IMG/VR virus record: IMGVR_UViG_3300032093_000017 | Source: a virus | Length of the DNA stretch: 64,000 bases | Reading direction: 5' to 3' (one strand) | Shown here: positions 12,030-16,541 of the stretch, piece by piece | Position numbering within the stretch: the stretch's first letter is position 1 | Layout: every line of letters begins with the position of its first letter | Program-made: the position numbers and the translations under genes | Notes under the pieces: model-generated | What the model saw: only the letters and a program-made list of their open reading frames with translations | Told to the model about the DNA's origin: nothing | Databases searched by the model: none

Positions 12030-13031
12030 ATGAGTTTTGTTGATTCCAAATACATCGGGCTGGTATCTTCCCGACTGGATAAGTTTGCTAAGAAAAAAGA
12101 AGGTCTTTATAACTTTCGGTGCCCTTACTGCGGTGACAGTCAAAGGACAAAGAGTAAGGCAAGAGGATATATTTACCAATTAAAGAACGACCATAATTTT
12201 AAGTGTCATAATTGTGGAACTTCTAGAACATTTACAAACTTTCTCAAAGACTTAGATGTTGTTCTTTACGACCAGTATGTGATGGAAAGATATAAAGAAG
12301 GAACTACTGGAAAAAGGTCTCAAACAAAGAACCCAGAGTTTAAGTTTGAGAAACCAAATTTTTCAAAAAAGGCATTTGACCTGCCTACCATCGCAGAACT
12401 AAATAAAGAACATTCTGCAAGAAAATACTTAGAAGATAGAAAAATACCTAACAACTATCTGTGTGAATTGTATTTCTGTGAAAAGTTTAAAGAATGGACC
12501 AACACGCAAAAACACACCTTTGATAAAGTAGAACGGGACGAACCACGAATTATTATTCCTTTAATCAATAAAGGAGAAATATTTGGATTTCAAGGTCGTA
12601 GTTTAAATAAAAAATCAAAGGTGAAATACATTACAATTATTCTTGATGATACACATCCAAAAATTTACAATTTGGATAAACCAGACTACGACAAAATTGT
12701 TTATGTTGTTGAAGGACCAATTGATAGTATGTTTTTGGATAATTCAATTGCTATGGTTGGTGCAGACATCGATAAAATGTTTTTCATATCCAACTTTGCA
12801 ACAGAATTTGTAATGGTGTATGACAATGAAAAACGAAATAAACAGATCGTAGATAGAATGGAAAAAGCAATACAAATGCGATTTCCAATCGTCATTTGGC
12901 CGAATGACTTGAAAGAAAAGGATATTAATGATATGATCCTTTCAGGAATTGATGCCCCAAAAATCATCAAGGAAAATACTTATATGGGATTAGAAGCAAA
13001 AGCAAAACTTATTGGATGGAAACGAGTATGA
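12030..13031 (+). CDS. gp61: DNA primase gp61
   Basis: CPYCGD..CHNC Zn finger; VEGPIDS and YDNE TOPRIM motifs; KDIND. Confidence 0.95.
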   Translation: MSFVDSKYIGLVSSRLDKFAKKKEGLYNFRCPYCGDSQRTKSKARGYIYQLKNDHNFKCHNCGTSRTFTNFLKDLDVVLYDQYVMERYKEGTTGKRSQTKNPEFKFEKPNFSKKAFDLPTIAELNKEHSARKYLEDRKIPNNYLCELYFCEKFKEWTNTQKHTFDKVERDEPRIIIPLINKGEIFGFQGRSLNKKSKVKYITIILDDTHPKIYNLDKPDYDKIVYVVEGPIDSMFLDNSIAMVGADIDKMFFISNFATEFVMVYDNEKRNKQIVDRMEKAIQMRFPIVIWPNDLKEKDINDMILSGIDAPKIIKENTYMGLEAKAKLIGWKRV

Positions 13032-14722
13032 GCAACGGTACAAAGGTAATTAAGAGAAGTGGTGATAATGAACCTCTTGATCTCAATAAACTTCACTTAA
13101 TGGTTGAGGAGGCATGTAGGGACCTCTCTGGTGTTTCTGCATCACAGGTCGAGATGCAATCTGGTATTCAATTCTATGATGGAATTACAACAGCAGAAAT
13201 TCAGGAAATTTTAATTCGTTCTGCATCTGATTTGATTGATTTGGAAAATCCAAATTATCAATTTGTTGCAGCAAGACTACTTCTGTTTTCGGTGAGAAAA
13301 TCTTTGTATGGAAGAGTTCAAGATCATCCTACTTTTGTAGATCATATTAAGAAATGTGTTCTTGCTGGAGTATATGATCCAGAAATCTTGACTAACTATA
13401 CAGAGGAAGAACTTAATCGTCTTGGTGGTTATATTAATCATAACCGTGATTATCTATTTACTTATGCTGGTCTTCGTCAAGTAGTTGATAAGTATCTTGT
13501 TCAAGACCGTAGTGCTGGGCAAGTATATGAAACTCCACAGTTCATGTATATGATGATTTCTGCGACTATTTTTGCTAGATATCCAAAAGAAACTAGAATT
13601 TCTTATGTCAAACGATACTACGACGCAATCTCCAAACACAAAATCAACATTCCCACACCTATCATGGCAGGAGTGCGAACTCCACTTCGACAATTTGCTA
13701 GCTGTGTTCTTGTTGATGTTGATGACACCCTCGATAGCATCTTTAGTTCTGATATGGCTATCGGCAGATATGTTGCACAAAGGGCGGGAATCGGCATCAA
13801 CGCAGGTAGAATCCGTGGCATCAACGCTAAAATCAGAGGTGGAGAAGTTCAGCACACAGGTGTTGTCCCATTCCTCAAAAAGTTTGAAGCAACTGTCAGA
13901 TGCTGCACTCAAAATGGCATCCGTGGTGGATCAGCAACTGTCCACTTCCCAATCTGGCACCAAGAGATCGAAGACATCCTAGTATTAAAAAATAACAAAG
14001 GAACCGAAGACAACCGTGTTCGTAAGTTAGACTACTCTATCCAAATCTCTAAACTGTTCTATGAACGATTCATCAAGAATGAAGAGGTCTCTCTCTTCTC
14101 CCCACACGCAGTTCCTGGTTTGTATGATGCTTTTGGAACTGATGCTTTTGACGAGTTATATGTACGTTACGAACGAGATGAGTCTATTCCTAGAAAGACT
14201 ATCGGAGCTCAAGAACTCTTTTTGGACCTCCTGAAAGAACGTGCTGAAACTGGTCGTATTTACATTATGAATATCGACCACTGCAACTCTCACTCATCCT
14301 TTATGGATAAGGTTGAGATGAGTAATCTTTGTGTTTCTGGTGATACTAAAATCAAAATTAGATATCCAGAACCCATTTATAATGATATTGGTGAAGTATC
14401 TGATTGGAGAGTTTGTGAGATTGAAATTCATATTGAAGATTTAGAAATTTACCTTTCTGATAGGATAGCTATAATTGCATGTCTTTGTGATGATGTTCCT
14501 CAAATAGAAGTTCTTTCTTATAATATAGAAACTAATCAACAAGAATGGGCACCTATTACAGCATTTGCCGAAACATCACCAAAAGCAAAGGTAATGAAAA
14601 TTACTGATGAAGAAAGTGGTAAGAGTATTGTAGTTACACCAGAGCATCAAGTATTCACAAAAAATCGTGGATATGTAGTGGCAAAAGACCTAACCGAAAC
14701 CGATGAGTTGGTAATTAACTAA
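13028..14722 (+). CDS. nrdA: Class Ia ribonucleotide reductase alpha, N-terminal fragment fused to split-intein N half (intein N 14330-14719)
   Basis: ATP cone, PTP, FASCVL, ...MSNL, then CVSGDT (block A) and TPEH (block B), then stop. Confidence 0.95.
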   Translation: MSNGTKVIKRSGDNEPLDLNKLHLMVEEACRDLSGVSASQVEMQSGIQFYDGITTAEIQEILIRSASDLIDLENPNYQFVAARLLLFSVRKSLYGRVQDHPTFVDHIKKCVLAGVYDPEILTNYTEEELNRLGGYINHNRDYLFTYAGLRQVVDKYLVQDRSAGQVYETPQFMYMMISATIFARYPKETRISYVKRYYDAISKHKINIPTPIMAGVRTPLRQFASCVLVDVDDTLDSIFSSDMAIGRYVAQRAGIGINAGRIRGINAKIRGGEVQHTGVVPFLKKFEATVRCCTQNGIRGGSATVHFPIWHQEIEDILVLKNNKGTEDNRVRKLDYSIQISKLFYERFIKNEEVSLFSPHAVPGLYDAFGTDAFDELYVRYERDESIPRKTIGAQELFLDLLKERAETGRIYIMNIDHCNSHSSFMDKVEMSNLCVSGDTKIKIRYPEPIYNDIGEVSDWRVCEIEIHIEDLEIYLSDRIAIIACLCDDVPQIEVLSYNIETNQQEWAPITAFAETSPKAKVMKITDEESGKSIVVTPEHQVFTKNRGYVVAKDLTETDELVIN

Positions 14723-14726
14723 TAGG

Positions 14727-14780
14727 ATAGGGAGTGTAATTTCTACATTTTATAAATAGTTATGAGATTACACTTCCTAT
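14727..14780 (+). promoter_or_regulatory. 17-bp hairpin with late promoter TATAAATA (14751-14758) in the loop, abutting the endonuclease ATG
   Basis: atagggagtgtaatttc / gagattacacttcctat, two G-U pairs. Confidence 0.8.
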
Positions 14781-14781
14781 T

Positions 14782-15453
14782 ATGAAAACCTATATTGTAT
14801 ATAAAATTACGAATAAGAAAAACGGAAAGTCTTATATAGGAAAATCTGAATATCCATTAGAGCATCGTTGGAATCGTCATTTATCATCAGCAAGAAATGG
14901 TTCTAAATTTAGATTTCATTCTGCTATTAGAAAATATGGGGAAGATTGTTGGGACTTATCTGTGATTGAAACTTACCAAACTGAAGATGAAAACTTTATT
15001 AATGAAAAGGAAACTCACTTCATTAAACTCTTTGAAAGTGATACTAAAGGTTATAATGCTACTTCGGGGGGAACTGGTGGATGGATGCTTCCAAGATGCT
15101 CACAGGAGGTTCAGGAAGAGTGGAGAAATGGTATTTCCATAAGAACTATTGGTTACAATAATCCAAACTATTCTGGATACACTGATGAGGAACTCATAGA
15201 AGTAGGTGTAAAGTTTGCTAAAAAATATGGATTTATTGGTGGAAGGAAAAGAATAGTTGAGTTTGCTCTTAGTGAATTAAATATTAAGTTTCCAAAACAT
15301 TTCTCCAAAAATAGATTTGACGGAAACCATCAAAACTTTTATAAATCTATTGAAGAACAAACTGGATTGGTGTATAATCCTTATTATAGAGACGAAACTC
15401 AAAGAAAACTTGCTAAACAACTTTTAGAACAAAATAGGAGAAAAAAATGCTAA
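14782..15453 (+). mobile_element. Free-standing GIY-YIG homing endonuclease between the nrdA halves
   Basis: IVYKITN...YIGKS, R..H, E, GYNAT.GG. Confidence 0.9.
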
Positions 15454-16541
15454 AGATTGAATATCTTGAAGAAGAAATCCCAGTTTATGATATTACAGTA
15501 GAAGGAACTCATAATTTCTTCGCAAATGATATTCTAGTCCATAATTGCCAGGAAATTACTCTTCCAACAAAACCACTTCAACACATTGATGATCCCAATG
15601 GGGAGATTGCACTTTGTATTCTTTCTGCTGTTAATGTTGGCAAAGTAAAGTCTGATGATGAATTTGAAGATCTTTGTAATCTTTCTGTTCGTGGTTTGGA
15701 AGAATTGATTGATTATCAAAACTATCCTGTAGTTGCTGCAGAGATTGGAACCAAAGCACGTAGATCTTTGGGTGTTGGGTATATTGGTTTGGCACACTAT
15801 CTTGCTAAACTTGGTTTTAATTACGATACTCAAGAAGCTTGGGATGCGGTTCATCAATTGTCTGAATCGTTCCAATATTTCCTTCTAAAAGCATCAAATG
15901 AAGTTGCTAAAGAAAAGGGTGCCTGTGAATATTTTAATCGCACTAAGTATTCGCAAGGTATTCTTCCAATTGACACTTACAAGAAAGATGTGGATGAAGT
16001 TTCTTCTGTTCCTCTTCATCACGATTGGGAATCGTTAAGGCAATCAATCAAAGAGTTTGGTCTCAGGCACTCCACTCTTACAGCACAGATGCCATCTGAA
16101 TCCAGTTCTGTCGTCTCCAATGCCACAAACGGCATCGAACCACCTCGTGGATTTTTATCAATTAAGAAATCTAAAAAAGGTCCTCTCAAACAAATTGTTC
16201 CTCAATATCAACATCTTAAAAACAACTATACGTTGCTTTGGGATATGCCTAGCAATCGTGGTTATATTAATATTGTTGCAGTTATGCAGAAATTCTTCGA
16301 TCAAGCAATTTCTGGAAACTGGTCGTATAATCCAGAAAATTATGCCAATAATGAAGTTCCTGTTAGCGTAATGGCACAAGATATGCTTACTTGTTTTAAA
16401 CTTGGGCATAAGACGGCATATTATCAAAATACATATGACAATAAGACCGACGAAATTAAGGAGGAAAAAACTAATATTGACGATTTGGTTAAAGAACTTT
16501 TAGAGGGGGGGGAAGACGACTGTGAATCCTGTAAAATTTAG
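15447..16541 (+). CDS. nrdA: Split-intein C half (33 aa, 15447-15545) fused to the C-terminal fragment of NrdA
   Basis: [37 protein letters not shown], YY, terminal CESC; RBS aggag at 15436. Confidence 0.95.
   Translation: [364 protein letters not shown]

Follow-up and report, generated by a model that had tools for sequence, protein, structure and literature searches.

The gene nrdA, which encodes the large subunit of ribonucleotide reductase (RNR), is interrupted in the virus record IMGVR_UViG_3300032093_000017, a T4-like freshwater (lake) cyanomyovirus. This nrdA very probably belongs to the fractured genes defined by Dassa et al. (2009), with a mini-intein located directly before the thiyl-radical cysteine of the enzyme and cut in two by an inserted GIY-YIG homing endonuclease gene. 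The analysed stretch of 64,000 nucleotides is referred to below as the window. The split gene consists of the following elements, given by their positions in the window (ORF, open reading frame; aa, amino acids; IntN and IntC, N- and C-terminal intein halves):

13016/13028..14722, plus strand: nrdA-N ORF, comprising the N-extein and IntN
13016..14329, plus strand: nrdA N-extein, 438 aa (from ATG 13016) or 434 aa (from ATG 13028), ending in ...VEMSNL
14330..14719, plus strand: IntN, 130 aa, followed by a double stop TAA TAG at 14720-14725
14726..14781, plus strand: RNA hairpin with an 18-bp stem (arms 14726-14743 and 14764-14781)
14751-14758, plus strand: T4-type late promoter TATAAATA in the hairpin loop
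14782..15453, plus strand: free-standing GIY-YIG homing endonuclease ORF, 223 aa
15436..15440, plus strand: AGGAG ribosome-binding site for the IntC/nrdA-C ORF, within the 3' end of the endonuclease ORF
15447..16541, plus strand: nrdA-C ORF, comprising IntC and the C-extein
15447..15545, plus strand: IntC, 33 aa (MLKIE...ILVHN), with intein blocks F and G
15546..16541, plus strand: nrdA C-extein, 331 aa plus stop, with the +1 Cys in CQEITLPT and a CESCKI tail

The two adjacent same-strand ORFs, nrdA-N and nrdA-C, jointly cover an intact NrdA without loss or duplication. Pfam-based annotation identified the ATP-cone, the all-alpha Ribonuc_red_lgN domain and positions 1-213 of the Ribonuc_red_lgC barrel in the N-extein, and positions 210-522 of the same barrel in the C-extein. 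In BLASTP comparisons, the exteins shared 83% (N) and 79% (C) identity with the intact NrdA of Synechococcus phage DSL-LC03. The latter protein runs uninterrupted over the junction, and the exteins of the window abut in it at MSNL/C (here and below, a slash marks the splice junction). The insertion is thus precise at the codon level. The +1 Cys aligns to C439 of Escherichia coli NrdA (query residue 34 versus chain residue 439), which bears out the claim of an earlier note on this DNA that nrdA is split at its thiyl-radical cysteine. The predicted spliced NrdA would comprise 765 aa (86.8 kDa) from ATG 13028, the length given in the earlier note, or 769 aa from ATG 13016; the predicted precursors are of 64.2 kDa and 41.3 kDa. 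Both of these ATGs are in-frame candidates for the start of nrdA-N, and cluster members of 568 and 564 aa are both on record.

The insert carries the two halves of a class-1 intein. The product of nrdA-N reads ...EMSNL/CVSGDTKIKI...TPEH...TETDELVIN and then terminates at TAA TAG. Block A of IntN is C1-V-S-G-D-T (14330-14359), and the conserved half of IntN (residues 76-130; 14555-14719) holds block B, T103-P-E-H106. The break between IntN and IntC separates blocks B/N4 from block F, which is the canonical position. The class-1 set is complete and includes C1, T103xxH106, D15, H22, the penultimate H32 and the terminal N33 of IntC, and the +1 Cys. All these splicing residues and the MSNL flank are invariant in the 35 fractured loci compared here, and the junction flanks as a whole, MSNL (N-1 to N-4) and +1 to +7, are nearly invariant at the protein level. 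The gene pieces described in the earlier note were all recovered and confirmed to the base: an N-terminal piece reading ...MSNL/CVSGDT with an IntN of 130 aa and a stop; a separate GIY-YIG ORF between the halves; and a new gene opening with a 33-aa IntC that ends in VHN/CQEI.

The closest solved structure is that of the NrdJ-1 split intein (8ubs; E 1e-21), with other mini-inteins next. The HINT fold was recovered with a contiguous sibling allele, L013 (IntN 84% identical), which was modelled instead of the two chains of the window. In a Foldseek search with this AlphaFold 2 (AF2) model, 8ubs_A was the top match (E 4.6e-9), followed by about 40 more intein/Hint-type chains at E <= 0.001.

Residues 11-58 of IntN (14360-14503), between block A and the VLSY strand, represent a hypervariable insert. 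The total length of IntN varies from 111 to 143 aa across relatives, and several types of this insert are mutually unalignable. The insert in the window contains three extra Cys (C29, C51, and C53), which are not conserved in relatives. The idea that this Cys-rich insert acts as a redox switch was rejected, because its sequence, length and Cys content are unconserved and its ratio of nonsynonymous to synonymous differences per site (pN/pS) is about 1. In two other loci, L067 and L070, IntN possesses a 23-aa basic C-terminal extension, TPSLLKKEYELRERIKKVFGESN, after ...DEIII and ahead of the stop and the hairpin.

The ORF between the intein halves matches PF01541 (E 3.6e-12), and phrog_314, 'homing endonuclease', spans its residues 1-193. 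The catalytic domain corresponds to residues 1-95, and residues 6-95 align with the catalytic domain of I-TevI (1mk0/1ln0, E 3e-6). Residues Y7, Y18, R29, H33, E77, and N92 are invariant in the 35 loci; we take their I-TevI counterparts to be Y6, Y17, R27, H31, E75, and N90, respectively. The spacer between nrdA-N and the endonuclease ORF is 59 nt long. Its hairpin has a folding energy of -24 kcal/mol (z -5.8; none of 200 shuffled sequences was as stable), and its 3' arm extends right up to the start codon of the endonuclease. Both the hairpin and TATAAATA occur in all 39 fractured loci examined, which represent 30 distinct spacer sequences. At the other end of the endonuclease ORF, AGGAG lies 6 nt ahead of the IntC ATG at 15447, and the end of the endonuclease ORF shares 7 nt (ATGCTAA) with the start of the IntC ORF. 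An overlap of these two ORFs is likewise conserved in the 39 loci. The nrdA-N, GIY-YIG, and nrdA-C ORFs are in three different frames; read-through is therefore unable to join them.

In the survey of IMG/VR, relatives of IntN turned up on at least 99 contigs and relatives of the endonuclease on at least 101. Loci with both junctions readable made up 45 distinct cassettes. Thirty-nine of these are fractured by a GIY-YIG gene (including L132, which carries an endonuclease), and six have a contiguous mini-intein of 152-176 aa. Since the fractured layout recurs in at least 38 distinct cassettes on independent contigs, it is not a product of chance or an assembly artefact. In the contiguous form, a short linker such as TYNEKTST connects ...DELVL with LIIEYLEE.... 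One locus outside the 45 cassettes, L052, encodes IntN and IntC in separate ORFs without an endonuclease; positions 4360-4440 of this contig hold the IntN stop, a 5' hairpin arm (ATAGGAAGTGTAATTTCTA), and then AGGAG and the IntC ATG. This locus is an endonuclease deletion scar, like gp41-7 of Dassa et al.

Selection was assessed by the Nei-Gojobori method over the 35 fractured loci. The pN/pS ratio was 0.03 in IntC and 0.07 in the catalytic domain of the endonuclease; the exteins gave 0.08-0.25, the conserved half of IntN 0.15, and the IntN insert (residues 11-58) about 1.0. The low values indicate that purifying selection acts on nrdA itself, on the parts needed for splicing and on the nuclease. 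The number of synonymous differences per site was 0.61-0.68 in the exteins, 0.29-0.31 in the endonuclease, 0.32 in IntC, and 0.44 in the conserved half of IntN. The synonymous divergence of the endonuclease and IntC is thus about half that of the exteins, and these parts are therefore markedly younger than the host gene, as would be expected of a horizontally spreading element.

The following sequence of events is proposed for this locus. A mini-intein would have been placed in nrdA immediately ahead of the codon for the thiyl-radical Cys, and a free-standing GIY-YIG gene would then have entered this intein at the loop usual for intein endonuclease domains, cutting the intein in two. By homology with characterised systems, the two NrdA fragments would be made separately: a transcript shared with the primase gene would serve for nrdA-N, and the AGGAG within the endonuclease ORF would direct translation of nrdA-C. 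The two intein halves would associate to form the HINT fold. The expected chemistry is that of class 1, namely an acyl shift at C1, transesterification to the +1 Cys, cyclisation of Asn33 of IntC, and an S-to-N shift. L438 would thereby be joined to C439 in a NrdA of 765-769 aa with an intact active-site finger loop. Trans-splicing of the window pair is predicted because its catalytic residues are invariant, the parts are under purifying selection, and the homologous intein NrdA-2 is active. The RNR activity of this gene, again judging by homology, would depend on trans-splicing.

The endonuclease is probably silent on early and middle read-through transcripts, in which its start would be buried by the hairpin. 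Translation would be possible only from late transcripts that begin at TATAAATA and do not include the 5' arm, as in mobE of Aeromonas phage Aeh1 and I-TevI of T4. Gibb and Edgell showed that such features limit mobE translation to late infection (PMC2677866). Control of the endonuclease in the window by the hairpin and the late promoter appears likely by analogy.

Some observations weigh against this interpretation. The C-terminal 125 aa of the endonuclease match no known DNA-binding module, and a Pfam search with residues 101-223 was negative up to an E of 1; this region is constrained, since its pN/pS is 0.30. No recognisable Shine-Dalgarno sequence precedes the endonuclease ORF. Covariation in the hairpin is sparse: one A-U to G-C exchange was found, the remaining changes are mostly G-U-compatible, and there are a few mispairs. 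The AF2 model is only moderately confident (pLDDT 70.9, pTM 0.57) and was obtained for a sibling allele rather than for the two chains of the window. Finally, IntN and IntC are both net acidic (-13 and -6, respectively), which is odd for a pair presumed to be steered by opposite charges. The bulk of the acidic excess of IntN resides in the variable insert (-9), and a local basic patch of this half, KAKVMK, may pair with the acidic IntC strand.

Instead of being spliced, the two NrdA fragments might assemble non-covalently, with the intein halves serving only as an affinity handle similar to the charged tails in phage Aeh1. NrdA-a and NrdA-b of Aeh1 are active without splicing (PMC3045599), and sibling alleles of the L025 type have an intein-less split with basic and acidic tails. 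In the window, however, the break is located directly at the catalytic Cys, and about 160 intein residues would stay in the active-site finger loop. Unspliced assembly also leaves unexplained why the splicing residues are all invariant and why the pN/pS of IntC is as low as 0.03. In addition, the homologues NrdA-2 and NrdJ-1 are proven splicers. We consider this explanation very unlikely. Another view would be that a selfish element has disrupted nrdA, leaving a pseudogene in decay, and that the phage uses the host RNR; nrdA genes of Campylobacter phages, riddled with inteins and endonucleases, were suggested to be degenerating (PMC3653736). Decay of this kind is extremely improbable for the window, where both exteins are full length, contain zero frameshifts and keep their 79-83% identity to the intact homologue, and where nrdB is intact downstream. 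Over the 35 fractured loci, the exteins displayed neither frameshifts nor pN/pS near 1 (0.08-0.25).

Joining of the pieces by an RNA-level event or by translational bypass is hardly conceivable. Nothing in the sequence speaks for it, and bypass was weighed and dismissed by Dassa et al. (PMC2677866); known cases of bypass span tens of bases, not hundreds (PMC2677866). The 1.2-kb insert includes a conserved ORF under selection and canonical intein blocks, and the three ORFs of the locus are in different frames (no intron or Rfam scan was run).

The layout was first described by Dassa et al. (2009; PMC2677866), who reported 26 fractured genes in Global Ocean Sampling (GOS) data, including seven cyanophage-like NrdA. 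Features reported in that study include endonucleases of the GIY-YIG or Vsr-like type, hairpins that carry late promoters (often TATAAATA) upstream of the endonuclease start, and endonuclease/IntC overlaps of 6-69 bp (PMC2677866). The window displays every one of these features, that is, the same insertion point, a GIY-YIG gene, a hairpin with a late promoter, and an overlap within the range of 6-69 bp. The earlier note had attributed the layout to marine metagenomes and set it apart from the intein-less split of Aeh1; both statements hold, and the prior literature was rightly credited. Comparison with known split inteins, which the earlier note had suggested, revealed a clear homologue of NrdA-2 and also of NrdJ-1 (the latter at E 1e-21), and no new class.

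Among the GOS inteins, only NrdA-2 and NrdJ-1 were compared, and the alignment with NrdA-2 was made by hand from the machine-read supplement of PMC7090010. NrdA-2 (exteins SNL/CNE) splices in cis to approximately 75-98%, is active in trans and is orthogonal to eleven other inteins (Pinto et al., 2020; PMC7090010 supplement). It shares with the window pair the class Ia nrdA host gene, the SNL/C insertion point, the split at the endonuclease loop, and an IntC of 33 aa ending in NFFAN(D/N)ILVHN. Identity between the two amounts to 20/33 residues in IntC (about 61%) and 39/71 residues in the conserved part of IntN (about 55%). IntN is longer in the window than in NrdA-2 (130 aa versus about 105 aa) owing to the hypervariable insert. 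The window intein is therefore a diverged member of the NrdA-2 family, as judged from these alignments. Charges are inverted between the two at matched positions: SPKAKVMK in IntN of the window corresponds to SESAEVLE in NrdA-2, and EYLEEE in IntC corresponds to IKRESKE. Docking of split inteins was assigned to complementary strand charges by Dassa et al. (PMC2677866). The charge inversion is thus a reasonable argument that the window pair may be orthogonal to NrdA-2, and a new orthogonal split intein, as proposed in the earlier note, is possible. Similarity to NrdJ-1 includes TKNRGYV...DELV in IntN and the last 13 residues of IntC, which are identical. NrdJ-1 differs in residing in a class II RNR (NrdJ), with the insertion one residue more C-terminal and the N-terminal 60 residues unalignable.

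Relatives of the insert in two cultured phages were found only at the protein level. The cultured T4-like Yersinia phage vB_YenM_TG1 (L002; KP202158 136590-142796) has its intein at the same point (QSNL/CLSGES...ILVHN/CAEI), and its IntN shares 44% identity with that of the window over 70 aa. A hairpin containing TATAAATA lies ahead of the endonuclease. The TG1 locus differs in having an HNH instead of a GIY-YIG endonuclease and in its enterobacterial host. The TG1 record lists two 'ribonucleotide reductase alpha subunit' coding sequences (CDSs), and an intein is not mentioned. In the Klebsiella jumbo phage KP13-7 (OP617745), IntN, a GIY-YIG gene (35% identity over 181 aa) and IntC are present in the same order in nrdA. 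The junction in this phage, QSNLC/CVTGE...VHN/CEIDLP, is different; its intein apparently lies one residue later, as in NrdJ. The nrdA of KP13-7 (L001; OP617745 30225-36749) is broken into four or more pieces. It opens with an N-terminal fragment and an HNH-like ORF; after these come a fragment ending in IntN, the GIY-YIG ORF, an IntC fragment ending in a second IntN, an HNH-type ORF, and the last fragment, which starts with a second IntC (...VSHN/TSSQ). Most of these pieces are annotated as 'hypothetical protein'.

The mobE-split nrdA of Aeromonas phage Aeh1 (PMC3045599) is broken in the same active-site region and also features a free-standing endonuclease gated by a hairpin and a late promoter. 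The Aeh1 break is intein-less and unspliced, with the fragments held together by basic and acidic tails, whereas the window has canonical intein halves instead. An intein-less break of the Aeh1/mobE type is thus absent from the window; this solution occurs only in siblings such as L025. In the contiguous-intein allele L025:2699-6532 (also in L013-L016, L026, and L048), nrdA carries a second, intein-less fracture 16 codons downstream of the intein. The N-piece has a 35-aa basic tail, and the C-piece has a 37-aa acidic head before LCILSA. The intervening ORF encodes a 254-aa homing endonuclease (phrog_314, E 4.5e-21) with weak matches to SegE GIY-YIG and to the DNA-binding part of I-TevI. The split is located between the counterparts of E. 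coli E441 and C462, and the tails are oppositely charged as in NrdA-a/NrdA-b of Aeh1. No allele with both endonucleases was seen among those examined.

The histories of the modules bear on the question of what the GIY-YIG endonuclease cuts. Pairwise identities of IntN and the endonuclease are nearly uncorrelated (r 0.10), compared with an r of 0.59 for the endonuclease and IntC. In three pairs of loci, the endonucleases are at least 98% identical and IntN less than 70%. The window and L070 share 98.5% identity at the end of the N-extein and 99.6% in the endonuclease but only 52% in IntN; one breakpoint lies just behind block A, some 18 nt from the start of the intein, and the other at the 5' arm of the hairpin. 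Mean nucleotide identity is 0.90-0.96 within IntC and only 0.76 over the first 30 nt of the C-extein, the drop coinciding exactly with the junction. IntN of each contiguous allele is closer to that of some fractured allele (66-95% aa identity) than to that of any other contiguous allele (56-90%); forms with and without the endonuclease therefore coexist in at least four IntN lineages.

The simplest reading of these patterns is a repeated 'intein-targeted' invasion as envisaged by Dassa et al., in which the endonuclease would cut contiguous intein alleles that have no endonuclease. Intein-coding DNA is favoured as the target because the endonuclease and IntC travel independently of IntN and the exteins, and because alleles with and without the endonuclease are both found within each IntN lineage. 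The likeliest target would be the contiguous mini-intein allele of relatives infecting the same cell. For repair, homology arms could be provided by IntC and the conserved 3' half of IntN; near-identical sequence of this kind would be needed because the exteins of different lineages are too diverged. The target that the earlier note had proposed to test, intact nrdA near the SNLC codons, is disfavoured by these population data.

Homing into intein-less nrdA near the SNLC codons would imply that the whole IntN-endonuclease-IntC cassette is copied as one unit. Free-standing phage endonucleases of the Seg/Mob type often cut conserved host-gene sequence beside their own gene. Intein-less alleles dominate among cultured cyanophages, and the protein-level conservation of MSNL and of positions +1 to +7 also speaks for such a target. 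This explanation is unlikely, however, given that IntN and the endonuclease have different histories (r 0.10; three pairs with at least 98% versus less than 70% identity), that the breakpoints fall within the intein (one behind block A, the other at the hairpin), that contiguous alleles without the endonuclease exist for each IntN type, and that identity drops at the intein/extein boundary with no decay into the extein. Origin of the contiguous alleles by endonuclease loss and in-frame re-fusion is less likely as well, as four IntN types have the same NEKTST linker. Returning to intein DNA as the target, we tentatively offer a wider, and as a whole rather doubtful, picture. The nrdA intein may be under a live polymorphism for presence of the endonuclease, and the conserved 3' half of the mini-intein may act as a portable landing pad across nrdA genes whose divergence (nucleotide identity of about 75%) precludes homologous exchange. 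Upstream of it, the 5' portion of IntN would evolve neutrally and be freely swapped. The interface charges, inverted relative to NrdA-2, could make the pair orthogonal to NrdA-2, NrdJ-1 and other characterised split inteins.

The split gene is embedded in a gene order typical of related phages, between the following neighbours:

12030-13031, plus strand: primase ORF, upstream, its end overlapping the start of nrdA-N
16522..17706, plus strand: nrdB (RNR small subunit), adjoining nrdA-C downstream, outside the mobile cassette

The closest DNA sequences are those of Synechococcus phages of the Kyanoviridae (72-78% identity), in which the order primase-nrdA-nrdB is identical. The nrdA genes of these phages are uninterrupted, and the matches are restricted to the exteins (63-66% of the query). 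Intein-less nrdA is also the form found in the majority of cultured cyanophages. The nearest record, G001, has an identical layout and 83% identity. A nucleotide search with the 1.2-kb insert against 50,697 phage records gave nothing beyond short C-extein matches. The exact proteins of the window are present only in metagenome assemblies, on contigs of up to 160,803 bp, with the annotations 'group I intron endonuclease' and 'ribonucleoside-diphosphate reductase alpha chain'. A search of the window for a second copy of the endonuclease, IntN or IntC found none.

The arrangement described here is already known, and the locus leaves the knowledge of RNR and inteins unchanged. What is new is a diverged and very abundant example of an NrdA fractured gene, a population picture that supports the published model, and a prediction of the endonuclease target. 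Split inteins from this source (gp41-1, NrdJ-1, and NrdA-2) are workhorse tools for protein ligation, and a charge-inverted relative with an IntC of 33 aa may add an orthogonal pair. For a single intein, all the stages that Dassa et al. proposed are found among the related contigs, namely intein-less, contiguous, fractured, and split without an endonuclease. With these stages represented by real alleles, the fractured-gene model becomes testable without a hypothetical series, and it predicts that the endonuclease would recognise intein DNA.

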